Below are positions 12,605 to 48,219 of a DNA stretch of 64,000 nt, piece by piece (position 1 is the stretch's first letter; each line of letters opens with the position of its first letter). Both the position numbers and the translations under genes were made by a program. Source of the stretch: Naegleria gruberi (taxonomy: Eukaryota). The notes beneath the pieces were generated by a model. The model was not told the origin of the DNA and searched no databases. It worked only from the letters and a program-made list of their open reading frames with translations. The stretch lies in the NCBI GenBank assembly GCA_000004985.1, contig GG738869.1. One strand, given 5' to 3'.

Positions 12605-13858
12605 TTGTTGTTGATGTATGTGTTGTTTATTTTGTTTTAATAAATAATTTGACGTTGATGGGGCGACGTATGGCATTTTCGTATTGACGGGTCAACTCGT
12701 CAGCCATAAGCCGTTACAATCTGCAGAGAACTTGGAAATTTAAGAGGTCCGAGTTCTGATGTTTGGTTGATTTAGTACAAATTCAATTAGTTTCTTGTGA
12801 TAATTTGTGGAGTGCTCTATTAGAATCTTTTAGATTCGAATAAATATTTGAAGGAAATGGCTTCGAAGGAGGTATGAGTCATTGTATTATTGAGACTGAG
12901 ATGGGTTATTATTGAAATGATGTTTGAGATTTTCAAGTAAACAGTTCTTTTATGAAACTTGGAACTTTTACAATACTTGTTGTAATTGTAGTTTAGAATA
13001 AAGTTTCCCTTCATTGAAAAGTTCAATTCCATTTCCTTTATTATTAAACACATAACAATGTCATTACTAGCAAAAATGATTCTTTGTTAACAATTTTCAA
13101 ACTTTTCAATTAAACAACCAAATATTCATACGAAAGTCCTACTTTAATTTGAAAAGCATCAGCTTTTAAGATAGATTTTTATGATAGATTGAATAATCTG
13201 GCAATTAATGTAATTTGACCTTATTCAAAAATATAATCAAATTTCATTGTTGATGAAACAGAGAGTACAATGTACTGTAATTAGGTCAAAATTCCTAGAT
13301 CCAATCAGTCTGCACAAACACCTATTTTATTTTTCCCGCCCATTTTTCATCATAATTCACGCCTTTGAAATCAACTGGATAACAAATCAGGGCAGTAAAT
13401 TCATCTTCTTACTATTCCACAATTGATATTTTGTAAAATAATTGTAATAAATGGTATTTACATTTTACAATAGGTTTTTTGAGTTTCTCCTAAAAAGTCA
13501 ATCTATTGCGTTTTTTAAATTAGGAGTGATAAAGACAACTTTTTCAATTTCGGCCTTTAGTTTCCTCGTTAATTTGATCAAAGAAGGATTTCTCTCGTCT
13601 TGTTTCAAACACGAAAAAATTCGAACAGTGCTATTCGAAAGGTTGTTAACAAACCATAAGAAAAAATTGATATCTCATCATTTGTTTGAAATTAAAGTTT
13701 CTATCAGATATTCGAATACATTCGAATAACAATAATTGATCTGAATTTCTAGAACTGTCCCAAATAGTTGGGTGGTAAAGCCCTTAAATCAAGAAATTTT
13801 TCTATCTGCTGCAAAGTTTAGCATAAATTCCCAGCCATCAACATCAAACATCAAAAAA

Positions 13859-16800
13859 ATGTCATCGCCAAGTGCCGACTGTTCAGAAGGAGTAAACAAT
13901 CTTTTGATGAGTAGCAGCACAACAACAATAACGGAGGAGCAACAACCAACAAATTCCATTGAACCAAATGATGCTCCAACAAATGCTGATGAGAAAGTAG
14001 AAGAATCTTCTTCATCATCCAAAACTATTACAACAGATAGTAGTAATACAACAATAACAATAACAACAACTCAACTTCATGAGACAATAACATTGACTCA
14101 ATCAACTTTATCTCAACAAGCAGTAGAAGAACAACAAACAGCAAATAATCAACTTGTTGCCAACAATACTTCCACTACAACAACAACAACTACAGAAGAA
14201 GAAAATGGCGCCATTTTACAACCAAGAGGTTCTGTTGTTGTTCTGATGAATGCGCCATCACACCACGACAGAATCAATAGCAGCACGAGTGAAGATGATG
14301 ACAATGGTGATGATAATATTGTATTTGAATCACGTACGGCTACTACGACTCCAGAGCACATTGATACAACAACAAACCCATTTGTAACAGGTGTTGTTTT
14401 TAATAATATTATTGAGAATAGTGATGAGACAATTAATAATAATAATAATAACAATGATGATGATAATAATAATAATAATACAACAACAAATGAATATCAT
14501 GTTGATGTTGATGATGATGATACAAATAATAATAACAATGAACAAATAACAGAGGAACAAGATCAATCATATCAAGATGTTGTTATGACTCCAACATATA
14601 ATGTTCAACAACAACAACAACAAACATTTACAACCTATGATCGTAATGACTTGTTGTTAAATGTTGATGATTCACAACTTCCTTTGTGGATGAGATTGGA
14701 AGAACGATTAAATGTACACCCAGAGGCAAAACCTGTTCATTATCCACTTCCACCTTCTGTTAGAGTTGCCAGTAGTCATCCAGAATTACAACAATCCAAG
14801 TATCCACACTTGCAAGAGTATCATCGTCAATTTTATGAGCCATTTACTGTTCTTGAGAGAGAAGATCCATACTCTTTCAAATCTGTACAATTCAAACCAC
14901 TTGAAAACCATCCAACCTCTCATATCTCTCACAATTCAGCATCCTTGAACAATTCATCCTCTGCCAATTTACTTACACTCACATTGACAAATCCAAATAT
15001 ACAATCTAGCGGTAATGGAAAGAGTATTGTTGATTCTTTCTTTAAAGCTTTATATCATCTTGATTCTATGGCTTCAAACAGTCAACTAGGAAAAGATCAA
15101 GTTCATGTAATTCAAAATGGAAATGGTAGTGCTAGTGCATCTCTCAATGACTTGTCAAACGATTCATCACATGATGAAACATCAGAAGTTGGTTCATCAC
15201 TCTCTCCACTCAAGGGATCACTTAAAAATTTGAAGGAACAAGAAGGTCTCGATGGAAAGAGAAAAGGAAGCATTTTCGCTTTGAAATTTAAACATCAAGC
15301 ACAAGCTTCTTCTTCTGATAATTCTAAAATTATGAGTACTTCAACTCAAAATCCAAAAATGCTTTTGGATGGTTATGATTCTCTTGAAGTCAACACATCA
15401 GATTTGGAATCTCACAATGATCAATCGTCTGATGTAAATAGAAATGAATCACAAACACCTGTTAGTACTACTTCAGGCGCTCCTGGAGGCAGTGATCCTA
15501 ACCAAGTACAAGAAGAAGATACTGAAGAACAATATCTTAAAAAGTTGAGTTTGGTTGAATTTTCCAAACATTGTAGTGCCAAGAGACGTGTAAAACAATT
15601 TGATTTCCTTTCTGGAGATTCCACTTTTGATAAACCTCCTCTCATTAGTAAGAAAATTCCATCCAATATGAGCCTTGCTTCTCCAACTGGTGAAGAGAAA
15701 CCTCCAGTTGTTTCTGAAGATGGTAAATTGAACATTTCTGATACTGAAATACTTCCAGAATCAACCACTCGTCTTATGAGTTGTCTCAAACCAAACTTTA
15801 AATATAGACCTATAGAAACATCAATGTGTTTCCGTCAACCACAAAATCAAGCTAGCTTGGCATATCCTATCAAGAAGAGAACACAACTAGTTATTTCATG
15901 TCATACACCACCAAAATTCGAAAGACCTGTTTCTGAAATTCACTACTTCTCAATGGCTCTTTATGATTTGGAGAGGGGTTCTAAAATTAGTGAAGATTTC
16001 CACTTCCATTTCCTTTTGAAGGAACAAATTGAAACTCTTTCTCCTTGGGTTCAAAATTATTTAAAGACTATGGCATCAGCACTTCCAGTTAAACCAGTTC
16101 AACAACCACTCATGTCTCCTCGTTCAGGTGAAAATGGTCAACCTCAAGTTCAACACGAAGAACAAAAGGCATTATTCACTATTACTTATCCAAATGATCA
16201 AATATATTTGGTTATTCAAGTATATCGTTTACCAACTGGAAGTATGAAGGATGCTCTTAAACTCTACAAGAGGGACACCAAACAATCAGAAATTAATGAT
16301 GTTGAAAAACAATACAATGAACTCAAACAACAAGTTGCTCACTTTAGACAAGCCATTCTCTTTGGATATACTCCATTATTCAGCAAGAGAGGTAATGTTT
16401 ATCAATTGACCTCTACAAAGTATGAGCTCAAACCAATGTATTCTATTGAAGGATTTGATTTCAAGACTCCTTTCGATGCCATGACCATGATTAGGACTAT
16501 TCAAAAGGAAAAGAAATTGAAGAATATTACACAAATTGATGGTGGATTTTTATTGAGAGCAGAAATTTTGAAAAATCACTCGAATGCCAACAAACAACCT
16601 AAACATAATAGACATCGTTCTATCGAGCACAATCTTCATCCAATTATTGGATCATCAGGTAATAGTGCATCTTTAGTGACTAGTCCACAAAGTTATGAAA
16701 ATCAACTTACTGATGAAAGTGGTAATTTATTAGTTTCAAATGGAGTTTCATCATCACTTTCAAGCTCTTCACCATCTCCACTCTCTCCATCCAACTCACT

Positions 16801-19800
16801 TCTTAAGGAACGTTTAATGAATGATTTGGGAAGATCGGATTCAATGCCTAGTAGTCCTCTTAAGGGTATGATTGATCATGAAAAGACTGCCCACGATGAT
16901 GAAAATAGCCTTGAAACTGACTTGATTAGAGTTCAAGAACTTCCAATTCAACTCTCCAAATATCCAAACATGGAGGTTCTCAATCACTTCTTCTTTAATC
17001 CAATTGTTGCCCAATTCGAAAAGACATTTGGTGGAAAGAATATTTTCTGTGAGGTATTGTATCGTGAGTCTGATTCTGAAGTTGTGAATGAAACAACTGG
17101 TCAAGTTAATGCAGAGCCAAGAATCATGACTAGGTTCAGTAGAAATTCATCTAAATATGATTTCTCATGTGTTTCGTATGATGAAGAGAAGCAGCCACAC
17201 TTTTACGATGAGTTCAAGATTGATATTCCTTGTGAACCAAGGAGGGATCAACACGTTTTGGTTGTTTTCTATCACTTGGATGTAGATAATAAGAAGTCTA
17301 AAAAGTTGAACTATGTGAGTGGTGCTAATGACATTAGAAAGGAAGATTTTGGAACTTCTCACAGAGCTGTTCTTGGGTATGCTTTCATGGAATTGAACGA
17401 TAGCAAGAAGTTTGATAGCGAAGGCTACTCAATGTTCCCTCAATTCCGTAAACATACCTTCCCTGATGAAATTACTATTTACAAAGAACTTCCAGCCAAT
17501 TATTTGAAGGACTCTGAAGAAAAATTGAAGAATCTCAAGATTGGTAAATTGAAAGTTAGATCCCATTTGGTTACAACCATTGATCCATCTGATGAAATTA
17601 TTACCCTCTTCTTCTCCACAATGTATGATTTACAAAATGTTCCAGATTATCAAAAACCACAAGTCTTAACCTTCTTATGTGACTATGTCTTCCCTCAATT
17701 CAACAAGATTGATTTCAAGGTATTCATGCCACATTTACCAGTTGTTTTGAATATGCTGTTTGGTTTAATGGCAAGAGTTTCTGCCATGCTTCAAGCAAGT
17801 GCTGTTTCTTACATTATTGAAAAGGTTGAAATTGCAACATTTGAACAAATTTTGGTTTGCTTGCGTGGTTGTTATCACTTCCTCAGTGAGACCAATCCAG
17901 AGAATGAATCACACTCTAGGCTCAATGTTTTCTTCTCCAGTTACACCAAATATATTCTTACTGAACCAAAAGGAGCTAAATATCCATTGTTTAGTATCTT
18001 GTTGAGATTGATGGCTGAATATTTGGAAGTTCCAGAAACTGAAAAGATGGCTCCTGCCAAGGGTTCAGACTATCTCAATGATTTGAGTCAAATGGTAAAG
18101 AAATCTCGTCAAAAGAAGGAAAATATGGACAATGTCAAGCAACAAATTGACCAGAGAAGAAATCAACTTTCAGAACACGATCCAATTCGTTTCTCCTGGT
18201 TCATTTTTGATGTTATTATCAAATCAATGACTATTTTCTTCAATGAAAAGGCAAAGAAGGAAGACAGTGCTTCACAAAGAAGAAGACGTATTTCTGCTCA
18301 TGATGAACACGAGTTGGACTATCCAATTTCTGATAGACACATTTTAAACAGATTGAGACAGCTCACTGATAACATGGTTGTTCGTATCTACAAGTTATTA
18401 CTTGCCAGTGGTATTGGTCGTCAAAATATTGGTATTGGTGGTAACAGAAATTTGGCTCTCTTCTTACGTGATCTCATTCCATTCATTCCAGACAAACAAC
18501 TCTACATTGAACACTTGATTGATCGTTACTTCCAAAGTTTGGATGGTATTGATGAACGTAAATTGAGACTTAAAGCAGAATTTATTGCCATCTTGACTGA
18601 TTACGATTATTACATTCCATTCAATTTGCACTTGTTACGTCTCTTTTCTAAGGGAGAAGGAGATTCTGTCGAATCCACAGCTACAACCACAGAGGAAAAT
18701 GCTGAATACTTGATGAGCCAAGAAGTCAACTCAAAGCAAGTTACCTTCTCTTCAATTTTGATTGAATTATTCTACGATGTTGTAAAGAGTGGTAATGACA
18801 AGTTGCTTATCAAAATTTCAAAGATTTTATTGGATCACTTCTGTAAATTAGACTATGATAGCAGATACCAAGAAGACTCTAGAAGAGCTATTGTTACTGG
18901 ATTGTACATTGAATTTGTTGATAGATTCCTCGAAAATGATGAAAATCTTACTCGTTTCAAGAATGACGAGATTTATGTAGTTCTCTCTTCATGTATCATG
19001 TGGATTTTGAGAGGTTTATCAAAGGACAAGTTGTTACGTTGGTGGAAGTCTCGTCCATTCTACGTAATGCTCAATTTGATTACCTTCTTGGAACATACCA
19101 CTGTTGCCTTTAACAATTTGGACTTTTCAGGAAAGATGACTGACGACAGTATTCTTCGTACTGAAATTGCTTGTATTACAAGTTATTTGATATCAACACT
19201 CCTTTCTAATAGAAGTTTATTCGATGAAATTTTACCAGAATTGAAAACCCAAGATGAAAACATTCAAATGTTGGAGAATATCCAAATTACCGATATTGTC
19301 TTGCAACGTCAACAGCAAATTGCTGACTTGTTCGAAGCAAAGAGCGTCAGGACTCAACCACACACAGTTGCCTTATTCTTTAGACGTATTTCACACTTGT
19401 TGTTAAACTTTATTCTTCAACTTACTTTAAGGTCTGATTCTGCACATTGCCACTTGATCTTTAGACAATGTGTATTGCCTCTTGTGAGAGATATGACTGA
19501 TCAATTGGTTGTTTCTGAATTGTACGATGACTCCATTCCAAAGAGAGAAAGAGTTCCTCCAGTTCAAAAGAAGCATGTCGAACAAAAATGGCGTTGGTTG
19601 CTTGGTTCTGTTATTCTTCACTGGAGCTTTAATCCAAAACTTGAGAACCAAATCCACGACCTTGTTCGTGCATCCCTTGAATTGCTCTTGAGACCTATGG
19701 AAAAGATCTTGAAAGAAAAGCAAACAAATGCAACAGGTCAAGCTGATGAAGATGGAGATGTCATTCTCGATGAAGATGGTACTATTCGTGCTGCCACATT

Positions 19801-21064
19801 CAACAAGCTTGTTGAAAGAATGTTGGAAATTAACATTTCTGAAGGTGATTCTGAAGAACATGGTAAATTCAAACACATTTTCCAAATTACCTATGGTTCT
19901 TTCACAACACCTCTCGAATTGTTGACCATTTTATCTACACTCTACCAAACTCCTAACCCTAATCAAAACATTATCAGAATTCGTGTTGAACAATTCTTGT
20001 GTGATTGGATTCGTGACAGTTTCCACGAATTTGATAACCTTGTCATTGCTGAACTTGTAAGATTCTTAATTGTCAATGATCGTGACTTGAAGACTAACAC
20101 CAAGAAGAAGATTCGTCGTTATGCCATCAAGAACTTGCTCAACTTTAAACAAGAACATATCAAACAAAAGGGTGTTCAAGATTGTTTACCACAACTTCCA
20201 AAAGGTATTTTATTCGAAGAGTTAGAAAAACCAGTAGTTGACATTAAGGAATGGAGAATTAAAAAGTCACAAAGAAAGAATTATAAGAATCCATTCGATA
20301 GATCATTCGACTTGTTGGCTTGGCCACCAGTAGAAATTGCAAGACAAATGACACTCATTGATGCCAAGTTATTCAGAAAGATTGAAGCAAGAGAGTTCTT
20401 CGACAATGCTTGGGCTGATAAGGATTACAAGTATGAACTCGCTCCAACAATTTGTGCAATCACTGATCGTACTAATAGTATTTCCTATTGGGTTCGTAAC
20501 AGAATTCTCATGGAAACCAATCCAGAAAATCGTAAGAAGGTCTACAAGAGATTCTTGGATATCATGCGTGAATTGTACTTGATGAATAACTTTACATCTG
20601 TGATGGCTATTTCATCTGGTCTTAACTCTGCTCCAATCTCTAGATTGAGGGCTGCAAAGGAAGGTATCAGTAAGGACGATGTACAACTTATTGAAGATTG
20701 TGGAAACTTGTTCCAACAAAACTATTCACTCATGAGAAAGAGATTGGAAAGCTTGAGCATTGAAAGATCTCCTTGTATTCCTTTCACTGGTGCCTTCTTG
20801 ACCGATGTCACCTTCACTAAAGATGGTAACCAAGATTTTATTGACCACGTTTCTAATCCAGATAAGAAATTGGTCAACTTTAAGAAGAGACGTACCTATT
20901 ATAAGACTATCAGAACTGTTCAAGATTTAAAGACATCTCTTCACTATCCATTCAAACCAATTCCATTCTTGGAATATATTTTGAAGGAAGATATCTTCCA
21001 CAACCTTAACAATGATGATAAGGAATTGTATAATTTATCCATTAAAGTGGAACCAAGAAAATAA
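13859..21064 (+). CDS. Giant Ras guanine-nucleotide exchange factor (RasGEF_N + Cdc25-homology catalytic domain) with long poly-N/T/Q low-complexity N-terminus, about 2400 aa, intronless
   Basis: First ATG at 13859 (MSSPSADCSEG); the tracked ORF begins at a GTG at 13772. RasGEF_N-like ILDEDGTIRAATFNKLVERMLE. Cdc25 domain WPPVEIARQMTLIDAKLFRKIEAREF...FTSVMAISSGLNS...PCIPFTGAFLTDVTFTKDGN. Stop at 21062-21064. Confidence 0.85.
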   Translation: MSSPSADCSEGVNNLLMSSSTTTITEEQQPTNSIEPNDAPTNADEKVEESSSSSKTITTDSSNTTITITTTQLHETITLTQSTLSQQAVEEQQTANNQLVANNTSTTTTTTTEEENGAILQPRGSVVVLMNAPSHHDRINSSTSEDDDNGDDNIVFESRTATTTPEHIDTTTNPFVTGVVFNNIIENSDETINNNNNNNDDDNNNNNTTTNEYHVDVDDDDTNNNNNEQITEEQDQSYQDVVMTPTYNVQQQQQQTFTTYDRNDLLLNVDDSQLPLWMRLEERLNVHPEAKPVHYPLPPSVRVASSHPELQQSKYPHLQEYHRQFYEPFTVLEREDPYSFKSVQFKPLENHPTSHISHNSASLNNSSSANLLTLTLTNPNIQSSGNGKSIVDSFFKALYHLDSMASNSQLGKDQVHVIQNGNGSASASLNDLSNDSSHDETSEVGSSLSPLKGSLKNLKEQEGLDGKRKGSIFALKFKHQAQASSSDNSKIMSTSTQNPKMLLDGYDSLEVNTSDLESHNDQSSDVNRNESQTPVSTTSGAPGGSDPNQVQEEDTEEQYLKKLSLVEFSKHCSAKRRVKQFDFLSGDSTFDKPPLISKKIPSNMSLASPTGEEKPPVVSEDGKLNISDTEILPESTTRLMSCLKPNFKYRPIETSMCFRQPQNQASLAYPIKKRTQLVISCHTPPKFERPVSEIHYFSMALYDLERGSKISEDFHFHFLLKEQIETLSPWVQNYLKTMASALPVKPVQQPLMSPRSGENGQPQVQHEEQKALFTITYPNDQIYLVIQVYRLPTGSMKDALKLYKRDTKQSEINDVEKQYNELKQQVAHFRQAILFGYTPLFSKRGNVYQLTSTKYELKPMYSIEGFDFKTPFDAMTMIRTIQKEKKLKNITQIDGGFLLRAEILKNHSNANKQPKHNRHRSIEHNLHPIIGSSGNSASLVTSPQSYENQLTDESGNLLVSNGVSSSLSSSSPSPLSPSNSLLKERLMNDLGRSDSMPSSPLKGMIDHEKTAHDDENSLETDLIRVQELPIQLSKYPNMEVLNHFFFNPIVAQFEKTFGGKNIFCEVLYRESDSEVVNETTGQVNAEPRIMTRFSRNSSKYDFSCVSYDEEKQPHFYDEFKIDIPCEPRRDQHVLVVFYHLDVDNKKSKKLNYVSGANDIRKEDFGTSHRAVLGYAFMELNDSKKFDSEGYSMFPQFRKHTFPDEITIYKELPANYLKDSEEKLKNLKIGKLKVRSHLVTTIDPSDEIITLFFSTMYDLQNVPDYQKPQVLTFLCDYVFPQFNKIDFKVFMPHLPVVLNMLFGLMARVSAMLQASAVSYIIEKVEIATFEQILVCLRGCYHFLSETNPENESHSRLNVFFSSYTKYILTEPKGAKYPLFSILLRLMAEYLEVPETEKMAPAKGSDYLNDLSQMVKKSRQKKENMDNVKQQIDQRRNQLSEHDPIRFSWFIFDVIIKSMTIFFNEKAKKEDSASQRRRRISAHDEHELDYPISDRHILNRLRQLTDNMVVRIYKLLLASGIGRQNIGIGGNRNLALFLRDLIPFIPDKQLYIEHLIDRYFQSLDGIDERKLRLKAEFIAILTDYDYYIPFNLHLLRLFSKGEGDSVESTATTTEENAEYLMSQEVNSKQVTFSSILIELFYDVVKSGNDKLLIKISKILLDHFCKLDYDSRYQEDSRRAIVTGLYIEFVDRFLENDENLTRFKNDEIYVVLSSCIMWILRGLSKDKLLRWWKSRPFYVMLNLITFLEHTTVAFNNLDFSGKMTDDSILRTEIACITSYLISTLLSNRSLFDEILPELKTQDENIQMLENIQITDIVLQRQQQIADLFEAKSVRTQPHTVALFFRRISHLLLNFILQLTLRSDSAHCHLIFRQCVLPLVRDMTDQLVVSELYDDSIPKRERVPPVQKKHVEQKWRWLLGSVILHWSFNPKLENQIHDLVRASLELLLRPMEKILKEKQTNATGQADEDGDVILDEDGTIRAATFNKLVERMLEINISEGDSEEHGKFKHIFQITYGSFTTPLELLTILSTLYQTPNPNQNIIRIRVEQFLCDWIRDSFHEFDNLVIAELVRFLIVNDRDLKTNTKKKIRRYAIKNLLNFKQEHIKQKGVQDCLPQLPKGILFEELEKPVVDIKEWRIKKSQRKNYKNPFDRSFDLLAWPPVEIARQMTLIDAKLFRKIEAREFFDNAWADKDYKYELAPTICAITDRTNSISYWVRNRILMETNPENRKKVYKRFLDIMRELYLMNNFTSVMAISSGLNSAPISRLRAAKEGISKDDVQLIEDCGNLFQQNYSLMRKRLESLSIERSPCIPFTGAFLTDVTFTKDGNQDFIDHVSNPDKKLVNFKKRRTYYKTIRTVQDLKTSLHYPFKPIPFLEYILKEDIFHNLNNDDKELYNLSIKVEPRK
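14436..14545. repeat. AAT/GAT trinucleotide tract (coding poly-Asn/Asp) within the RasGEF gene
   Basis: aataataataataataacaatgatgatgataataataataataat...; translates NNNNNNNDDDNNNNN. Confidence 0.8.
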
Positions 21065-25796: not shown

Positions 25797-27881
25797 ATGC
25801 AATCATTTCAATCTTCACCACCATCCGAACCTCTTCCCTCCTGCTCTTCAACCACTTGCCAATCCTGCAGAAAACTCCACAGAAAATGTGATAAACTTCT
25901 TCCGTCCTGTTCCTACTGCACAAAAAGAGGCTACGTTTGTTGTTATGAAAAAACCAGAGATGAACAATCGGTTGTAATCCGAAAAAAGAATGAAAACCCT
26001 TCGTTAAATTATCATCTCCATCATGACAATGATACAACTCTTGTAAATAATAGTAATCATCATAATAATAATAATAATTTAGTATCATCTGGATTTGATA
26101 GTAGTAGTAATAATATGATGATGGTGATGAATAATAGTAATAATAATTTTAATGTAAATAATAATAATCAAAATAGGTATAGATCGGTTCCTTATCAATC
26201 GACTGCTGGTTCTTCGTTGATATTTTCCTCTCAAAGAAATGAAAACAATTCTATGAATTATTCAATGATGATGAATGATTATCAACAGCAGCAGCAATCA
26301 GCAGCTTTTGTAAATATTGCAAATATGTTTAATCAACAAATGCAAATGAATTACAGATTGGTGACAAATCAAACTTTGGATATTTATTATCAATATCTTT
26401 CAAATGGATTTCCAATGGCTGATAGGAGAGTTTTGGAAAGAGTTTTGGAGTATAATTCAATAACTGCAAATGATTATTCTGTAAATAATACATTATCATC
26501 CTCAATGATGAGTCACTTGTATAGTAGCATATCAGAGTTTGAAAAGGATCAGTGTTTATTATTTACATTACAGGCCATGTGTTTGCAACAACTCGGTCAA
26601 AGAGAAACAGCCAATTTAATTTACTCAAATGCAAGACAAATCATGGGTAAATATTTTGATGATCTCGATTCTCAAAGTATGATGGTTGCCATGACTTTTA
26701 TGGGATTGTATTTGATTGGAGAGGGTGAAAATAGGAAGGCCAAGAATATTCTATCATCTGTGAAGAGTGCTATAGCTCCGTATAAGAATCCAGCAGATGT
26801 CTTGCAAAGTAATAACAATCCAATGCCATCATTTTCATTGTCATCAAATGAAAAACAGCAAGATGATGACACCATTTCAGAATGGGTTATTACGCAACCA
26901 AAGTGTTTTACTTCATTCTTGGTAGATACTCAGCTTCGTGGATTGGAAGCTTATTTTGGAGAGGAAGAAAATCCAAAAACCTACATTTTGGATGGATTTG
27001 AAACTCTTGGAAATAATAATTTGAATCTTTCAAAACTACGTGAAATGATTCCTGATTGTAGAGTGTTGAATAAGGAAGCAATTGATAGCTTATTGTCGTT
27101 GCTCCCTGCTTTGGAGTGTCTAGCTAAGGTTGTCTTGACAAATTTCAACAAGGCGCCCACACTCAAACTCCTCTACTCTTTAATGTTCAAACAAGCTCAC
27201 TTGGACATTTTGAAAAATGCAGAAGAAAGTATTCGAGACATTCCACAAATCTTGAATGTTTGCAGTCAAGTAATAGAATTGACTAGAGATGAATTATTTT
27301 CATTTTTACCAATTGTTGCTACCAAACCAATTGTAATGGCCTCTACACTAAGAGTGCACTATTTCAGTTCGCTAGATTCAACTGAAAATTTCAATGATGA
27401 CCTGCGTGCCTTGAAAATACTCTCTAAAAACTTTAAGGCCATTCAGGCAAGCTGTGCTCCCCTCATTAAAGCTCTGGAGAGTTTGATCTATTTACAGCAG
27501 AGAAATAGTGCATCGGGAATAGAGTCATTATTTGATTTTGGAGAGGATATCTTTTCCATAGAGTCTCTTTCCAATTCATCACCAAGCTCATCAAATTGCT
27601 CGAAAGAAAATCTAACACCACAAACCATTTTCGATACCTATCAGTCAGATTACGCCCCACTTTTCCGAGACTTTGGTATAGATATGGAAATAGTTGATGT
27701 ATTCATTGAGAATATGAGTGAACAAGAAAAATTATTTCATAATGACAAGACGAAACTAGCAGAAAAGAGAATGGAACTTGTAGAATCTTTCAAGGCAATA
27801 TCTGGAAAGAAGAAGGATGTATTTGGCATTGTAGCTTGTGAATTTTTAAAGAAACAACTTCTTTTTAATGAAAATAACTAG
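25797..27881 (+). CDS. Zn(II)2Cys6 binuclear-cluster (Gal4-type) transcription-factor-like protein, 694 aa, with N/Q/M-rich low complexity
   Basis: N-terminus CQSCRKLHRKCDKLLPSCSYCTKRGYVC matches C-x2-C-x6-C-x6-C-x2-C-x6-C. The central region is paralogous to the 29710..31797 gene (FEKDQCLLFTLQAMCLQQLG.., GKYFDDLDS, LYLIGEGENRKAKN). Confidence 0.75.
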   Translation: MQSFQSSPPSEPLPSCSSTTCQSCRKLHRKCDKLLPSCSYCTKRGYVCCYEKTRDEQSVVIRKKNENPSLNYHLHHDNDTTLVNNSNHHNNNNNLVSSGFDSSSNNMMMVMNNSNNNFNVNNNNQNRYRSVPYQSTAGSSLIFSSQRNENNSMNYSMMMNDYQQQQQSAAFVNIANMFNQQMQMNYRLVTNQTLDIYYQYLSNGFPMADRRVLERVLEYNSITANDYSVNNTLSSSMMSHLYSSISEFEKDQCLLFTLQAMCLQQLGQRETANLIYSNARQIMGKYFDDLDSQSMMVAMTFMGLYLIGEGENRKAKNILSSVKSAIAPYKNPADVLQSNNNPMPSFSLSSNEKQQDDDTISEWVITQPKCFTSFLVDTQLRGLEAYFGEEENPKTYILDGFETLGNNNLNLSKLREMIPDCRVLNKEAIDSLLSLLPALECLAKVVLTNFNKAPTLKLLYSLMFKQAHLDILKNAEESIRDIPQILNVCSQVIELTRDELFSFLPIVATKPIVMASTLRVHYFSSLDSTENFNDDLRALKILSKNFKAIQASCAPLIKALESLIYLQQRNSASGIESLFDFGEDIFSIESLSNSSPSSSNCSKENLTPQTIFDTYQSDYAPLFRDFGIDMEIVDVFIENMSEQEKLFHNDKTKLAEKRMELVESFKAISGKKKDVFGIVACEFLKKQLLFNENN

Positions 27882-28073: not shown

Positions 28074-29441
<1,368 letters not shown>

Positions 29442-29709: not shown

Positions 29710-31797
29710 TTATTTCTGTTGTTGCAATTTTGCCTTTTCCAACTCCATTTCATAACTGAGTTGCTTTTGCATGAGCTCTGTTTCAATCACATGATAAACA
29801 TCCTTCCTATTGATTGCCTTATTTCGGTAGACTTGAACTAGTTGTAATTTTCTTTGATGCAAGCTCTCTATTTTTTGAACAGGATCAGTAACTTCTTTCT
29901 TAATCTTGTCTTGGTCCAATAGACAATTGACTAGCTCATCTATAAGATCAGCATCATCCTTCATCACTTCATTCAGAATAGGTCTGTGGTGTTCTATATA
30001 GTCATTATAATAAACATAAATACCTCCTTCAATATGTGGTTTCAATGTTGGTTCAATTTTGGAGGTAAAGTTACAAATTTCATCCACAGAAAATGGATTC
30101 ATGCTTCCATTATTTGATGACATGTATGTCAGTGTTTCAAGTGCCTTTATCAAATCAACACATTCTGTTTGGATGTATTTGTACTTATTTGAGAGTGATC
30201 TGAGAGCTCTTAGATCATCATTCACATTTTCATTAGGTCCTAGTTTGTAATAGTAATTTGCCCTCAGCGTGGTTGCTAAAATGATACCCTTAGTGGCATT
30301 GATTTGTAGATAGGGAAAGAATCTAGTCCTCGTTAATCCAATAATTTCACTCGAAACTTGTAAAATTTCATCCAAATCTCTGATACTTTCATCTGCATTA
30401 ATTAGAATTTCCAACCAAATCTGCTTTGTTGTGAGCAGCAAACCAAGCATAAGCAAATTATCTATATTTTGTGTTCTTTCACTCTCAACATATATCGTTG
30501 TGAGACTCATGAACGCTTTCATGATAGACCTCAGCTTGTGATACATTTCTTTGCCCAGTTTTTTACAACCTCTGGATCGTTCTTCTTCAGTGAATTTCAT
30601 TTTTCGGCTAGAAATTTCTTCAATAGCCTCGAAAAGATATGTATCCGGGTAGGTTTCTTCATATAGGTAAAGATCAACCAGTTTCAACATGGATTCAATC
30701 ATTAATGACGTAAAAGACTTGGTATTCTTCAATATCAGGTCTAGATCAGTATGTTCTTTGAGCTTCTCGTTTTTCAACAGGTATGGCTCTATACCTGCCT
30801 TTACAGTTGACATCATGACTCTAGCTTTTCTTCTTTCACCTTCTCCCAGCAAGTAGAGTGATGTAAATTTCATAGCGAGTAGGACATTCATCGAATCAGT
30901 ATCATCAAAATATTTTCCTAATAATTGTTTTCCTTGGTGATAGAGTTGAGTAGAAACGTCTCGATGACCCATCTGTTGTAAACACAATGCTTGTAGTGTG
31001 AATAAGAGTGATTGATCCTTCTCAAATTCAAACTGATTAGTGTAAAAATCACACCCAGAGGTTGAGAATGAAGGATGATACAAATTAGATTGATATTCCA
31101 AAACTTGTTCCAATTTCTTTCTTTCAACAAGTGGCATTCCACAAGCAATTACACCAAAATATACATCCAGAGTTTGAGTACTAACGAACCGATAATTCAA
31201 TTCGTTTTGCATTGGATTATTACTAGTTGTATTATTTCCAATCCTATTCAAACTATTATTTACAATATTTACATAAGGTTCTCCTCTCCTGACAATAGCC
31301 TTTGAATTTCCACTCGAAGAGACAACTGATTCATTCACTGAAACAAAATCAGCACCATTCACGCTACTTCTCACATTGGTAGTTCCTCTGTATGATGATA
31401 TTTCAGAACATTGATCCATTGTTGGCTGATTCATTTGGTGTGATAACTGTCTTTGCTTTCTTCCTTCATCGACAAACACAAACTTTGGTTGATTTGGTTT
31501 TGCAGCTCTCTTTGGTTTTTCATACGTACAATTGTATCCTCTCTTCAAACAATAGGAACAGGATGGCAGTAATTTATCACACTTTCTGTGTAATTGACGA
31601 CAGGACAAACATGAGTATTCACTCTTTTCAACCATCAAAACCACAATCTGAGGAGTAGCCGAAGTCGACGATGAAGAATTAATTGATTGTCCCAAACTAT
31701 TCTCACAATTAACCATACTATAATTACTAGTGCATTGATCATTATTTGGCATGATCATCATACTCGAATAATATCCTCCTCCATTTAAATTATTCAT
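29710..31797 (-). CDS. Zn(II)2Cys6 binuclear-cluster transcription-factor-like protein, 695 aa; paralog of 25797..27881
   Basis: CLSCRQLHRKCDKLLPSCSYCLKRGYNCTYEKP cluster. Shared blocks FEKDQSLLFTLQALCLQQMG, GKYFDDTDS, LYLLGEGERRKAR, NADESIRDLDEILQVSSEIIGLTR. Confidence 0.75.
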   Translation of the reverse strand: MNNLNGGGYYSSMMIMPNNDQCTSNYSMVNCENSLGQSINSSSSTSATPQIVVLMVEKSEYSCLSCRQLHRKCDKLLPSCSYCLKRGYNCTYEKPKRAAKPNQPKFVFVDEGRKQRQLSHQMNQPTMDQCSEISSYRGTTNVRSSVNGADFVSVNESVVSSSGNSKAIVRRGEPYVNIVNNSLNRIGNNTTSNNPMQNELNYRFVSTQTLDVYFGVIACGMPLVERKKLEQVLEYQSNLYHPSFSTSGCDFYTNQFEFEKDQSLLFTLQALCLQQMGHRDVSTQLYHQGKQLLGKYFDDTDSMNVLLAMKFTSLYLLGEGERRKARVMMSTVKAGIEPYLLKNEKLKEHTDLDLILKNTKSFTSLMIESMLKLVDLYLYEETYPDTYLFEAIEEISSRKMKFTEEERSRGCKKLGKEMYHKLRSIMKAFMSLTTIYVESERTQNIDNLLMLGLLLTTKQIWLEILINADESIRDLDEILQVSSEIIGLTRTRFFPYLQINATKGIILATTLRANYYYKLGPNENVNDDLRALRSLSNKYKYIQTECVDLIKALETLTYMSSNNGSMNPFSVDEICNFTSKIEPTLKPHIEGGIYVYYNDYIEHHRPILNEVMKDDADLIDELVNCLLDQDKIKKEVTDPVQKIESLHQRKLQLVQVYRNKAINRKDVYHVIETELMQKQLSYEMELEKAKLQQQK

Positions 31798-32166: not shown

Positions 32167-33294
32167 ATGCGTTTACTGCTAAGTGGACAACACTTTTTAA
32201 AGCCACTCCTATCTATCAATGAATTGTTGGACCAAATAATCGACTATTTAGATTATCCATCTATTATTTGTCTTTCCATGAGTAATAAATCCCACTTTGG
32301 AATTAACACTTTTTCATCAATTACAACTTCCGAATCATCATGCAACACACCTTCATCATCACTCCTCACATTAAATCCCAATTTATGGGTTAATTTAGTT
32401 ATTAGATATGATTGTGTGGGTGAATTAATTTCCAAATTTCCATCATTGAGTGGCTTGGAAGATGTTGAGGCTATGAATGAGAGGGAGAGAATGGATTTTA
32501 GTTTGAAATGTAGGGAAATATTATCGGAACATGTTCTTGGCAAATTGAAAAAGTATAAATTGAAAAAGTTGGATGAGAATGATGGTAAACAATTGTGTCA
32601 AGTTTGTGGGGAGTTGATTGAGATGGGGGAATTAATTGTATTGCATGTGAAGGAGGGAAAGGTTGCATGTTTTTATGAGTATTTTCATTGGAATTGTTTG
32701 GATATGGATGAGATGAATAGGATAAAGATGAAGAGATGTGAAATTGAGTATACTGATTCGAATAATTACTTTTTGAGGAAACAGGTGGAAAATTTCTATA
32801 AGAAAGTGGATGAATCGAGAGAAGTGAGAAGACAGAAATTATTTGGAATTGTTTGTGATTCATGTTTAAAGTTTCAGAGCTCGAGGTATTATTCTGGATT
32901 GGATAGTGATTCGAATAGAGTTGATTTATGTATGAATTGCTATTCCAACGAAAGAGCCACAAGTTTAACCAGTATTGAGAAGAGAAAGCCCTCACTGATT
33001 ACTTGTAGTACTTGTAAAGAGCCAATTAAGAACGCCATATTTTCATGCCAATATTGTGACTATTATTCTCTGTGTCAGAATTGTTTTGAACAATTACCCA
33101 AAACAAGTAAGCATTCCTCTCATCCGTTTACTTTGGTTGGATGTTGTATTGATACATTAGAATCAAATTCACATACTTCACGTTCAGAGACAACCGAATC
33201 TAAAAAGAGAAAGTATGAAAGCAATTCGAAAGTACCCAATAAGAAGGTTAGTTTGTTAGATGTTGCCAGGAATATGGGTTTTGATTTGACTTGA
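32167..33294 (+). CDS. Protein with two ZZ-type zinc-finger-like Cys clusters and a weak N-terminal F-box-like segment, 375 aa
   Basis: ATG at 32167. CDSCLKFQSSRYYS...CMNCYSNE and CSTCKEPIKNAIFSCQYCDYYSLCQNCFEQ (CxxC…CxxC pairs). LLDQIIDYLDYPSIICLSMSNK is weakly F-box-like. Confidence 0.55.
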   Translation: MRLLLSGQHFLKPLLSINELLDQIIDYLDYPSIICLSMSNKSHFGINTFSSITTSESSCNTPSSSLLTLNPNLWVNLVIRYDCVGELISKFPSLSGLEDVEAMNERERMDFSLKCREILSEHVLGKLKKYKLKKLDENDGKQLCQVCGELIEMGELIVLHVKEGKVACFYEYFHWNCLDMDEMNRIKMKRCEIEYTDSNNYFLRKQVENFYKKVDESREVRRQKLFGIVCDSCLKFQSSRYYSGLDSDSNRVDLCMNCYSNERATSLTSIEKRKPSLITCSTCKEPIKNAIFSCQYCDYYSLCQNCFEQLPKTSKHSSHPFTLVGCCIDTLESNSHTSRSETTESKKRKYESNSKVPNKKVSLLDVARNMGFDLT

Positions 33295-34317: not shown

Positions 34318-35457
34318 TTATATCAATTTATTTCCAACACCAGGAGCAAGTAAATACTTGAGAATAGCACAATACCAAATAATTGCTGATGGTTCTTCTA
34401 TGTTAGTATTGGTGATATCCAAATGAAGCCCTCCAAAATTCTCAAAAGCATACTTGTCAGCTATTTCGTTTGAAATTAATCTCTCATTATTCTGATCCTT
34501 CTTTGTTGTAATTAAGATCACTTCTGCTTTTGGTGCATTTTCCTTGATGGCTGTCAATTTTTGATTCATTGATTCTAATGTTGAATACTCAGAACTGGGA
34601 TCTACTAGCAGTAGGATGACTGAGGAATTTTTATAATAGGCTGATGTAATTGACCTGAATCTTTCTGGACCACACTGATCCCATAATTGAAGTTTGATTT
34701 TGGTGGTCTCTCCGATATGGAAACTCTTAATTGCAAAATCAATTCCAATAGTTGTCATATGGCTGTTCATACTTGCATTAACTGGTGTATCATTCATTGC
34801 ACAATTAAGTAATGAAGTCTTTCCACTTGCATAGTCACCGTCTAGAAGAACTTTAGTGAGATAGTCAAACTCGGATTTGGGTGGTTGTTCAGAAGTAACT
34901 GTCTGGTTCACATTTGTGGTATTATTACTCTTTGAAAATAATGATCCAAGAAATGATAAAGTATTTCCAAAAAAGCTAGATGGAGGTGCTTGATTTGATT
35001 CAATAACTGTAGGTTTTCTTATTGGAAACATTGGTAATTCTTCCATATCTGTAAATATGTTAAAGTATCCCTTCAAAATACTCAATTCTGCATCAACCCA
35101 TCTCTCCATAGCAAAACATGATTTAATATCAACAGACTTGGTGGAATTCCTTGCTAATTTACTAGCAAACTCAAAAGCCTCCTTTCGTAACAAGTACTTT
35201 TTGAATTTTCTTCCATTTACTGATTCTAAAAATCCATTCAAATCAACTTGTCTAGTAGAATTCTCAGATAGTGAATTAAACGTCTTTTCATAGCCTTGCA
35301 AAATATATTCACCACATAAATTTCTCCAACATTTACAAACGTGGCTCGTGTTGAAAATTAATTCGACATGACTAATGTGAGAGAGAATCTCTCCGATCAA
35401 TTCGTTTGGCAAAACTTCAAAGATAGCTGAGGATGGAGTTGGTTCTTGTTGAAGCAT
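34318..35457 (-). CDS. F-box domain fused to a divergent Rab-like small GTPase domain, 379 aa
   Basis: N-terminal FEVLPNELIGEILSHISHVELIFNTSHVCKCWRNLC (F-box). C-terminal P-loop LLDGDYASGKTSLLN. Switch I TTIGIDFAIKSF (Rab-like IGIDF). G3 WDQCGPE, where Gly-Gln is replaced by Gly-Pro. G4 ITTKKD. Converges on the 33396..34280 gene with stops 37 bp apart. Confidence 0.65.
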   Translation of the reverse strand: MLQQEPTPSSAIFEVLPNELIGEILSHISHVELIFNTSHVCKCWRNLCGEYILQGYEKTFNSLSENSTRQVDLNGFLESVNGRKFKKYLLRKEAFEFASKLARNSTKSVDIKSCFAMERWVDAELSILKGYFNIFTDMEELPMFPIRKPTVIESNQAPPSSFFGNTLSFLGSLFSKSNNTTNVNQTVTSEQPPKSEFDYLTKVLLDGDYASGKTSLLNCAMNDTPVNASMNSHMTTIGIDFAIKSFHIGETTKIKLQLWDQCGPERFRSITSAYYKNSSVILLLVDPSSEYSTLESMNQKLTAIKENAPKAEVILITTKKDQNNERLISNEIADKYAFENFGGLHLDITNTNIEEPSAIIWYCAILKYLLAPGVGNKLI

Positions 35458-46695: not shown

Positions 46696-48219
46696 ATGGC
46701 TGAATTTTCAATCATAAAATCTTCAAGACATGAAGAAAATTTCAATTCTGTTGATGTTCGGAATGGTTTCTCATCAAATCAACAACAACTTGAATGGGAA
46801 AATGTTGATAAGGTTTATCTACCACCTGAAATTCTACTCGAAATATTGCAGTTTATGGATTTTGATGCAATTGTCATGACTTCGGCAACGTGTAGGGGCT
46901 TTTATGAAGTTTCTCACGATGATGAATTGTGGAGAAAATTATTGAGTGCTGATTGGAAGTTATTGAAGGATGACGCAGCAGCAGCATTGAATAATCATCA
47001 GAATACAAATCAAAATGGTGGTAGCCTTCTGTCATCTCCAGTGGCGAACAATACAAATTCTAGTCGGGATGAGGCTGCCTCTTCTTCATCATCACCAAAT
47101 TCTTATGAATTGTTGGATCAAAATAATTCGGGTGATCTCTATGAAAAATACAAGGAACGATATTTGAGATACAAAAAGTGGAGAGATAGTATTGCTTTTA
47201 TATATTCCGAGGAGAGAAATCAATATATTAATAATGTGGAAACTCAGACAAGTGGAAAGTTTGTTGGTTATCTTAAATATTTCCTGTCCTTTCCTATACT
47301 GTTTTATAGATTATTGATCTTTTTATTTATTTCTCAGGATGAGCAACCTGATTTTGGTCTAGCTCATGAAATTGAATACATTCAAGAGAAATCATTGAGA
47401 GCTGGAGGATCCCTTCTTCTCTTAATTATATTTGCTCCAATGTTGTTCTGCACTTGGATGATTGGCGAATTACCTGCCACTCCTTTCTACGCTACTTTGC
47501 ATGTATTTTTCAAAATGGTATTCACCATTCTGTGCATTGCAGCTCATTTCTATAATCGAATGGATAGGAATATTGAATTTTACAAAGAGGCTAATAGTGT
47601 TTCTTTAGTGATTATTTTACAAACAATACTTACACTCATATTAATGAGATATGTGGATGATTTCATTATTTGCTGCCTTATTTCTTTCAACATGTCAACG
47701 GCTCTCGGATTGGCCATTTCTTTAAAGCACATGATTAAGAATACTGAAAGTATTGAGGGATTATTTGAATCCTCTAATACACCCGCTCAACACTACCTTT
47801 CCCCATTATTTGAAATTTTCAGAAATAGATCAGTTGTAACGAATTTGATTTTATCCAACTTGATGATTCTGGTTATAATGATTGGGGGATTCAAAACATT
47901 CGTTTGGATACTCATCTTTATTGCAATTGCCATAGTAACTGGAACCTCTGGAGGCTCTGGTGGCGTTGATTCCCTCGATCGTAGAATGCTCATCTTTGTT
48001 CTTGTGATCTTTGCTTGCATTTCCATTTCTGCATTAGCTACAAGTATAATCGGCGGAAATTATAAGAGAAAGAGTAAGGCGAGAAATACTAGTGCAGTGC
48101 TCTTGTTAGTGATTCTCACCATGTCATTCATTACACTTGCTATGAGAGTTATTTCCATAAAAAGTGGTGAAACTGAACGATGGCAGCTATCATTATTCGA
48201 TATTACTGATGAAGAATAA
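46696..48219 (+). CDS. F-box protein with a C-terminal multi-pass (about 7-9 TM) membrane domain, 507 aa
   Basis: LPPEILLEILQFMDFDAIVMTSATCRGFYEVSHDDELWRKLL (F-box), followed by multiple hydrophobic 20-aa segments (LFYRLLIFLFISQ.., LLLIIFAPMLFCTWMIG.., etc.). Confidence 0.6.
   Translation: MAEFSIIKSSRHEENFNSVDVRNGFSSNQQQLEWENVDKVYLPPEILLEILQFMDFDAIVMTSATCRGFYEVSHDDELWRKLLSADWKLLKDDAAAALNNHQNTNQNGGSLLSSPVANNTNSSRDEAASSSSSPNSYELLDQNNSGDLYEKYKERYLRYKKWRDSIAFIYSEERNQYINNVETQTSGKFVGYLKYFLSFPILFYRLLIFLFISQDEQPDFGLAHEIEYIQEKSLRAGGSLLLLIIFAPMLFCTWMIGELPATPFYATLHVFFKMVFTILCIAAHFYNRMDRNIEFYKEANSVSLVIILQTILTLILMRYVDDFIICCLISFNMSTALGLAISLKHMIKNTESIEGLFESSNTPAQHYLSPLFEIFRNRSVVTNLILSNLMILVIMIGGFKTFVWILIFIAIAIVTGTSGGSGGVDSLDRRMLIFVLVIFACISISALATSIIGGNYKRKSKARNTSAVLLLVILTMSFITLAMRVISIKSGETERWQLSLFDITDEE

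Follow-up and report, generated by a model that had tools for sequence, protein, structure and literature searches.

The gene at positions 34,318-35,457 encodes a protein in which an N-terminal F-box is followed by a Rab-like G domain with a proline at the position of the catalytic glutamine. We see about an even chance that it is a soluble substrate receptor of an SCF ubiquitin ligase, with the slowly hydrolysing Rab-like domain as its recognition module. In such a receptor the F-box would dock onto Skp1 of the SCF (Skp1-Cul1-Rbx1) ligase, and a family-specific helical linker would position the Rab-like domain. The WD40 or LRR module that usually binds substrates would be replaced by a G domain of Rab origin, in an F-box protein that is soluble and not prenylated. 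This domain would still bind guanine nucleotide, and proline in place of the catalytic glutamine together with asparagine in place of the G5 alanine would slow hydrolysis and keep it mostly GTP-bound. Finally, the switch/interswitch surface (F241, W259 and Y275) may bind partners resembling Rab effectors and present them for ubiquitination.

The gene and its annotation

The window, i.e. the whole stretch of 64,000 nucleotides of Naegleria gruberi DNA that was analysed, has a G+C content of ~34%. According to the list of open reading frames, a complete and intronless coding sequence occupies 34318-35457 on the minus strand. It starts with ATG and comprises 379 codons plus stop, exactly as delimited in the first-pass annotation. 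The encoded protein is 100% identical over its full length to XP_002677004.1 (EFC44260.1, UniProt D2VFW7), which bears the database name "rab family small GTPase [Naegleria gruberi]" and whose gene lies on a 747-kb scaffold. Given this match to a nuclear gene of N. gruberi, an origin of the window from a giant virus or a bacterium, which had been considered first, was discarded. The ORF is undisrupted in two assemblies of N. gruberi type. On the opposite strand of the same interval only short spurious ORFs were found.

The gene, its domain architecture and its family are already known. In a re-annotation of the Ras superfamily covering N. gruberi and N. fowleri (Herman et al. 2021, BMC Biol 19:142, PMC8296547), XP_002677004.1 is listed as "Rab ... 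F-box" in Table S8, in which the term F-box appears 72 times. According to these authors no accessory domain is commoner among the GTPases of Naegleria than the F-box. They described three divergent Naegleria-specific subgroups of F-box Rab-like proteins (Additional files 4 and 10), one of them with a CaaX motif, and noted that birth-and-death in these clades is rapid and that some of their members are disrupted. Furthermore, they proposed a "GTPase-dependent ubiquitination" for the F-box GTPases of Naegleria (PMC8296547).

XP_002677004.1 is a member of this group. Its divergent Rab-like domain is preceded by the conserved N-terminal extension that contains the F-box, and its alignment with the paralogues of Table S8 covers the entire protein. 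It belongs to a subgroup without a prenylation motif and differs from the group in nothing of kind. The combination of both domains, initially regarded as unusual, is not so in N. gruberi: the fusion has been published for this very protein and is common in the organism (PMC8296547).

What appears to be new beyond the 2021 paper is modest. The supplement text of Herman et al. (PMC8296547) makes no mention of glutamine or hydrolysis, and is likewise silent on the change of glutamine to proline, the TNT form of G5, the amphipathic helix and a homologue from Willaertia whose G3 is canonical. As judged from the sequences compared here, the Gln-to-Pro and SAK-to-TNT changes seem to be conserved across Naegleria species. 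The Willaertia homologue, the purifying selection on the orthologues in N. fowleri and N. lovaniensis and a conserved, putatively amphipathic motif ahead of the G domain may be added as further modest points.

F-box, linker and short hydrophobic helix

The F-box spans aa 14-48 (EVLPNELIGEILSHISHVELIFNTSHVCKCWRNLC; 35314-35418, minus strand). Two Pfam models were passed above their gathering cut-offs, namely F-box PF00646 (aa 16-48, E=2.6e-7, 30.7 bits against a cut-off of 20.5) and F-box-like PF12937 (24.8 against 24.3), so that the canonical N-terminal F-box recognised earlier withstood the comparison with F-box HMMs. At least one of the two models was also passed by 8 of the 10 family relatives scanned. 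The residues L16, P17, E19, L20, I24, V40, C41, W44 and R45 were invariant among the four full-length relatives, as were the contact-type F-box residues of the pattern LPxE...VCKxWR; P17 and V40 were invariant in 14 family members.

A profile of the family N-termini yielded 20 matches in the PDB at E<=1. The best 13 of these, and 17 of the 20 overall, were F-box proteins matched at their F-box, led by FBXL17 (E=1.4e-5) and followed by FBH1, FBXW7, FBXO6, KDM2B, FBXO42, FBXL5, SKP2 and FBXL2. The remaining three were weak and unrelated (E 0.16-0.86). In an AlphaFold2 (AF2) model of the N-terminus, based on a 14-member alignment, the F-box region formed three helices (18-26, 30-36 and 42-60) with pLDDT 76-88, whereas confidence for the F-box was low in the full-length model. 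A Foldseek comparison of the N-terminal model with the Skp2 F-box gave a local superposition with an rmsd of 1.3-2.2 Å over 35-41 columns, which was not significant (E 1.9-5.2).

The family-specific linker (aa 49-140; 35038-35313, minus strand) is characterised by the conserved columns GRxFxKxLLRK ... WxxxELxxLKxYF and is predicted to be helical. Its helices 80-104 and 118-137 had pLDDT 74-89 in the full-length AF2 model. For the linker, neither a fold match in the PDB (Foldseek with the N-terminal model) nor a sequence match (N-terminal profile against the PDB) was obtained.

A short hydrophobic and Ser/Gly-rich segment is conserved at aa 161-176 (SFFGNTLSFLGSLFSK; 34930-34977, minus strand), followed by a low-complexity spacer of S, T and N (aa 177-195). 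AF2 predicted a helix at 162-174 with low confidence. When the sequence N-terminal to the P-loop was scanned in windows of 14 residues, a comparable helix scored as the most amphipathic one in 12 of 15 family members, with a hydrophobic moment of 0.35-0.59 on the Eisenberg scale; the same scan found none in the Willaertia homologue P0200. That this helix acts as a peripheral membrane binder is speculation from its composition and hydrophobic moment.

The Rab-like G domain

The G domain covers aa 196-372 (34342-34872, minus strand). Pfam assigned aa 202-339 to Ras PF00071 (E=7e-21); among the NCBIfam models only the generic small_GTP domain was matched, with a score just below its cut-off. All 60 PDB sequence matches listed were Rab/Ypt/Sec4 entries, with Rab8A as the best (E=3.7e-21) and Rab1B, Rab35 and Ypt32 at ~4e-21. 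One of the 60 bears the depositor's name RABPHILIN-3A and is a Rab3A complex. Based on an alignment of 39 sequences, AF2 modelled aa 199-370 with confidence as a Rab fold (pLDDT mostly >90; pTM 0.72), and Foldseek against the PDB returned Rab10, Rab1b, Ypt32, Rab8a and Rab30 at TM(target) values of 0.78-0.88.

The P-loop (G1) reads GDYASGKT (aa 207-214; 34816-34839, minus strand), with G207, G212, K213 and T214 invariant in the relatives, and switch I contains TIGIDF (aa 236-241). The G3 motif at the start of switch II is WDQCGPE (aa 259-265; 34663-34683, minus strand). All three motifs were present as they had been read before. Within G3, Pro264 (codon CCA, 34666-34668) occupies the position of the catalytic glutamine in the WDTAGQE of Rab proteins. 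The HMMER alignment to Rab8A was gapless through G3 with identical flanks (query KLQLWDQCGPERFRSIT, in the longer stretch KLQLWDQCGPERFRSITSAYY), and a MAFFT alignment with 34 other Rab-type matches gave the same register. The substitution claimed in the first-pass annotation was thus borne out: G3 is not mis-assigned, and there is no glutamine at the catalytic position. A relocation of the catalytic glutamine to Q261, two residues past W259 at the threonine of DTAGQ, was considered as well and is unlikely, since Q261 is not conserved in the family members with VYGPE or YSGPE.

Three further features of the domain had gone unmentioned earlier. Instead of NKxD, the G4 motif is TKKD (aa 318-321; 34495-34506, minus strand): asparagine is changed to threonine, lysine and aspartate are retained, and T318, K319 and D321 are invariant in the family. 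G5 reads ITNT in place of (T/C)SAK (aa 348-351; 34405-34416, minus strand), and each of the residues I348, T349, N350 and T351 is invariant in five relatives. The C-terminal tail ...APGVGNKLI contains no cysteine and so no prenylation motif (CC, CXC or CaaX). Cysteine in the last five residues was found in 0 of 23 family sequences tabulated versus 105 of 127 in the first Rab match set. Judged by these motifs, "Rab-like" is the correct label and the domain is not a bona fide Rab, because the catalytic glutamine, canonical G4 and G5 motifs and the prenylation motif are all missing.

The RabF motifs are intact for IGIDF, KLQLW and RFRSIT and partial for YYKNS and LLLVDPS; close paralogues have YYRGA. 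The Rab effector-binding triad F241, W259 and Y275 as well as RFRSIT are invariant in the relatives. This surface bears on a reading in which the F-box merely recruits SCF to ubiquitinate the GTPase itself, resulting in a short-lived signalling GTPase. F-box proteins are commonly auto-ubiquitinated within SCF. Moreover, self-turnover has been suggested for TbFRP, which is rapidly proteolysed and whose authors tie its F-box to the rapid turnover (PMC3593210). We consider this reading rather unlikely for the Naegleria protein, as it would leave the conserved effector-binding triad, switch II and the rigid-looking linker unexplained; auto-ubiquitination and the presentation of substrates are, in any case, not mutually exclusive.

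Distribution and G3 variation in the family

A search for orthologues with the same fusion retrieved full-length relatives from three species, namely P0002 of N. gruberi (51% identity), P0003/P0123 of N. fowleri (38%) and P0004 of N. lovaniensis (37%); P0005 (47% identity) is a truncated gene model. They have a common layout consisting of the F-box signature, the helical linker, the short hydrophobic Ser/Gly-rich helix, the low-complexity spacer and the G domain. The four full-length proteins agreed exactly in WDQCGPE, T-K-x-D and ITNT. When 1.84 billion representatives were searched with a profile, further full-length members came only from Naegleria, Willaertia and metagenomic contigs.

The "GPE" of G3 is conserved in N. 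gruberi, N. fowleri and N. lovaniensis as well as in metagenomic relatives. The residues in front of it vary in the motif table, which has QCGPE, VYGPE (XP_002676638 of N. gruberi) and YSGPE (XP_002675157). This recurrence in three sequence contexts suggests that the proline has been retained rather than drifting. Among the sequences retrieved, proline at this position was restricted to the Naegleria family and one unrelated hydroxylase-Rab fusion (P0176). P0134 and P0005 carry asparagine instead, and in the first Rab match set 64 of 130 WDxxGxx motifs had threonine at the glutamine position, mostly in fungal Ypt4-like WDTAGTE.

Other members have gone further. In P0139, P0145, P0157, P0159 and P0210 G1 and/or G3 is degenerate, with loss of DxxG or of the P-loop Lys/Thr, and the F-box is kept; in at least some paralogues nucleotide switching is thus evidently dispensable. 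Two sequences keep the glutamine, namely KAL9657252 of Willaertia magna, in which G3 is WDTAGQE and G5 is ETSSK, and the metagenomic P0178 (WDTGSQE). As judged from the motifs, this distribution is consistent with an ancestral ordinary F-box-Rab whose glutamine was lost within the Naegleria lineage.

Nucleotide binding and hydrolysis

Guanine-nucleotide binding is probably retained, because GxxxxGKT, the switch-I threonine, Asp and Gly of DxxG, and Lys and Asp of G4 are invariant. Additionally, TKxD is a functional G4 motif in Rac/Cdc42-type GTPases. Both points tell against a Rab-like domain that neither binds nor switches nucleotide and acts on SCF as a constitutive protein-binding fold only. 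The changes of SAK to TNT at G5, of asparagine to threonine at G4 and of the catalytic glutamine to proline would be in line with such a pseudo-GTPase scaffold, and so would the paralogues that keep F-box and linker next to a degenerate G1 or G3. It is unlikely all the same for the protein studied here, since the invariance of the nucleotide-binding residues across species would be hard to explain without nucleotide binding.

Pro264 probably slows intrinsic hydrolysis, by analogy with HRAS. In HRAS the Q61P mutant has an intrinsic GTPase activity ~8-fold lower, like other Q61 mutants, and is non-transforming, unlike most of them (Der et al. 1986, as summarised in PMC6813200); proline is therefore not simply "activating". 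Furthermore, TBC-type RabGAPs provide a catalytic glutamine finger of their own beside the arginine finger (Pan et al. 2006, as cited in PMC11101121). A missing cis-glutamine alone does not, therefore, abolish GAP-stimulated hydrolysis, and the protein could still cycle. Of the initial prediction of a hydrolysis-deficient GTPase, the basis, i.e. glutamine replaced by proline, stands, while the term "deficient" overstates what we infer from it. As for G5, KRAS A146T shows raised GTP loading (PMC6813200), and the change at the equivalent of Ras A146 could likewise raise spontaneous exchange and favour the GTP state.

The glutamine in trans opens the way to an ordinary switch, in which Pro264 is tolerated because a dedicated GAP supplies the catalytic residues; the protein would then go through a normal cycle and capture substrate depending on its GTP loading. 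The dual Arg/Gln finger of the TBC domain and the frequency of Rab-type sequences without cis-glutamine, such as those with threonine described above, speak for it. We regard it as improbable, because the G5 change and the loss of the lipid anchor together suggest a departure from the membrane-coupled Rab cycle; we also know of no GAP or GEF for the F-box Rab-like proteins of Naegleria. As it has no lipid anchor, the protein is predicted to be soluble, unless it binds membranes peripherally by way of the helix at aa 161-176.

Selection and synteny

dN/dS was estimated from reconstructed coding sequences of N. fowleri (L003), whose gene has a single intron, and of N. lovaniensis (L002), whose gene has two; for N. 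fowleri, P0123 was used in place of P0003. The orthologues of these two species are under purifying selection, with a dN/dS of ~0.22 overall, 0.36 in the F-box, 0.16 in the linker and 0.23 in the G domain; at a dS of ~1.1 these values are approximate. A comparison of the N. gruberi gene with a 97%-identical metagenomic strain copy (L001) revealed 8 non-synonymous and 2 synonymous changes, i.e. a ratio near 1 from ten changes, which are too few to interpret.

In a tblastx comparison of the window with the loci of N. fowleri and N. lovaniensis no flanking synteny was detected, and similarity was confined to the gene itself. Positional orthology with these loci was consequently rejected, and the N. 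gruberi gene is a co-orthologue or paralogue. The genes of N. fowleri and N. lovaniensis have in common a phase-1 intron inside a glycine codon of the P-loop, which is missing in N. gruberi.

That the gene is a decaying lineage-specific paralogue, its function not maintained in the course of birth-and-death evolution, is very improbable: the disrupted members and rapid turnover of the clades (Herman et al. 2021, PMC8296547), the strain-copy ratio and the non-syntenic locus would fit, yet the frame is intact in both assemblies, the motifs are conserved across three species and the sister-species orthologues are constrained.

The protein as a putative substrate receptor

The reading of the protein as a soluble SCF substrate receptor draws on several lines of evidence. 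At the N-terminus these are the Pfam and PDB-profile matches of the F-box and its invariant contact-type residues, from which we infer that it binds Skp1; in the G domain they are the Rab sequence and fold and the conserved effector triad. The recurrent proline, the dN/dS of the sister-species orthologues and the C-termini free of cysteine were counted in its favour as well, together with HRAS Q61P, the precedent of Rab40 and the proposal of Herman et al. On the other side we counted the only moderate effect of Q61P, the glutamine supplied in trans by TBC domains, the degenerate paralogues, the low confidence for the F-box in the full-length model, the non-significant superposition on Skp2 and the strain-copy ratio near 1.

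A more specific form would be a GTP-locked Rab mimic wired to SCF, i.e. a soluble bait without hydrolysis or anchor that retains the surface for Rab effectors and captures binders of active Rab for ubiquitin-dependent degradation. To this form we give little credence. Its targets could be endogenous effectors or GAPs, or the Rab-targeting effectors of intracellular bacteria; the latter come into consideration because the family has expanded by birth-and-death in a bacterivorous amoeba that hosts Legionella. If bacterial effectors were the targets, the protein would represent an integrated-decoy form of cell-autonomous immunity.

Should the proposed mechanism of substrate presentation hold, dozens of GTPase domains in Naegleria would serve cullin-RING ligases as substrate receptors of a nucleotide-gated or nucleotide-locked kind. 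In animals only Rab40 and RhoBTB are known to work on this principle, which would then be in far wider use. The change of glutamine to proline, the change of SAK to TNT and the loss of the anchor together mark a subclade, which may be a constitutive binder.

Comparison with known systems

The euglenozoan TbFRP (Tb927.7.3790) combines FYVE, an F-box and a non-prenylated Ras/Rab18-like GTPase (PMC3593210). As in XP_002677004.1, the F-box precedes a Rab-related GTPase that is C-terminal and not prenylated, and TbFRP comes from a discoban protist related to Heterolobosea. Unlike TbFRP with its N-terminal, PI3P-binding FYVE domain, XP_002677004.1 had no FYVE match in Pfam. The authors of the TbFRP study found no N. 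gruberi orthologue (PMC3593210), and among the full-length matches of our family profile in the 1.84 billion representatives no TbFRP-like protein was recognised.

Legionella effectors with an F-box or U-box likewise combine a Rab-like domain with a ubiquitin-ligase module (bioRxiv 10.1101/350777). In contrast to the Naegleria protein, the Rab-like effectors of Legionella are bacterial, secreted and acquired from eukaryotes, and their architecture and context are different.

With regard to G3, the fungal Ypt4-like Rabs with WDTAGTE also have a residue other than glutamine at the position of Ras Q61 and keep their nucleotide-binding motifs. The same combination occurs naturally in Rnd/RhoE, RhoH and Rap. 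XP_002677004.1 differs from all these glutamine-less GTPases in that the residue is proline.

Rab40 keeps a lipid anchor and the canonical G3 glutamine, unlike XP_002677004.1. Rab40 possesses a SOCS box, and the CRL5 ligase that it forms attaches ubiquitin to EPLIN, ANKRD28 and DNAJC13 (PMC8129794, PMC10509765). Both proteins consist of a Rab G domain fused to a docking box for a cullin-RING ligase, and in Rab40 the Rab is the module that recruits the substrate (PMC8129794, PMC10509765). However, the SOCS box of Rab40 is C-terminal and binds ElonginB/C-Cul5, whereas the F-box of XP_002677004.1 is N-terminal and would bind Skp1-Cul1; a SOCS box was not matched in the latter by Pfam at E<=1. Rab40 and the F-box Rab-like proteins of Naegleria arose independently, and their likeness is functional only.

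Gene structure and genomic neighbourhood

The orthologues of the F-box Rab-like gene in N. fowleri and N. lovaniensis share a phase-1 intron that splits the codon for the P-loop Gly (LLDG|VWGAGKT in the former, LLAG|NYGAGKT in the latter). This intron spans 6722-6792 of the N. fowleri locus (L003). The N. lovaniensis orthologue carries another intron besides the P-loop one, its two introns being located at 6704-6760 and 7061-7106 of locus L002. In contrast to these orthologues, the window gene contained no intron. Directly upstream of the N. lovaniensis orthologue a tandem paralogue is located (L002 4436-5776) with 34% identity to the window protein.

Several further genes were found in the window. 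An ORF of 2430 aa (13772-21064, + strand) encodes a DOCK-type C2 (DHR-1) domain together with RasGEF_N and RasGEF (CDC25) domains; it is uncommon for a module of the Rho-GEF family to be joined to a Ras-GEF catalytic domain in this way. A tubulin gene (28074-29435, - strand) lies between two genes (25797-27881, + strand, and 29710-31797, - strand) whose products both carry the Zn(2)Cys(6) binuclear-cluster DNA-binding domain of the 'fungal' type. The neighbouring gene at 32167-33294 (+ strand) encodes a ZZ-zinc-finger protein. Its N-terminus, LLSINELLDQIIDYLDYPSIICLSMSNK, resembles an F-box on visual inspection, and no F-box model matched it at E<=0.01. Another F-box protein of 507 aa is encoded at 46696-48219 (+ strand; PF12937, E=7.5e-11), with no recognisable domain beyond the F-box.

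G motifs within and outside the family

Gln261 and Cys262 (34675-34680, - strand) stand where DTAGQ has its Thr and Ala; both are unchanged in all four full-length relatives sharing the QCGPE motif. Cys262 adjoins the gamma-phosphate site, where a Cys is uncommon.

In five family paralogues from Naegleria-like sources (P0139, P0145, P0157, P0159 and P0210) the F-box and the linker are retained, but DxxG, the P-loop Lys/Thr or both are gone. These paralogues are probably true pseudo-GTPases joined to an F-box.

In a separate lineage, represented by P0176 and P0031 from ENA metagenome contigs, an Asp/Arg beta-hydroxylase domain (PF05118) is joined to a Rab domain. The G3 motif of P0176, WDTAGPERF, has the same Gln-to-Pro change as the window protein; its G4 and G5 motifs are otherwise canonical and its C-terminal end is CaaX-like. 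In P0031 an F-box is placed between the hydroxylase and Rab domains, and G3 reads WDGRGGTERF.

A putative amphipathic helix upstream of the G domain

Composition and an amphipathicity scan point to a short amphipathic helix, SFFGNTLSFLGSLFSK (aa 161-176; 34930-34977, - strand), with one Phe/Leu-rich face and an opposite face of Ser/Gly/Thr, directly followed by an S/T/N-rich spacer. A helix of this type was the highest-scoring amphipathic window upstream of the P-loop in 12 of the 15 family members scanned; the Willaertia homologue lacked it. The helix might act as a stand-in for the lost prenyl anchor. In composition it is reminiscent of the membrane-sensing helices of the ALPS type.
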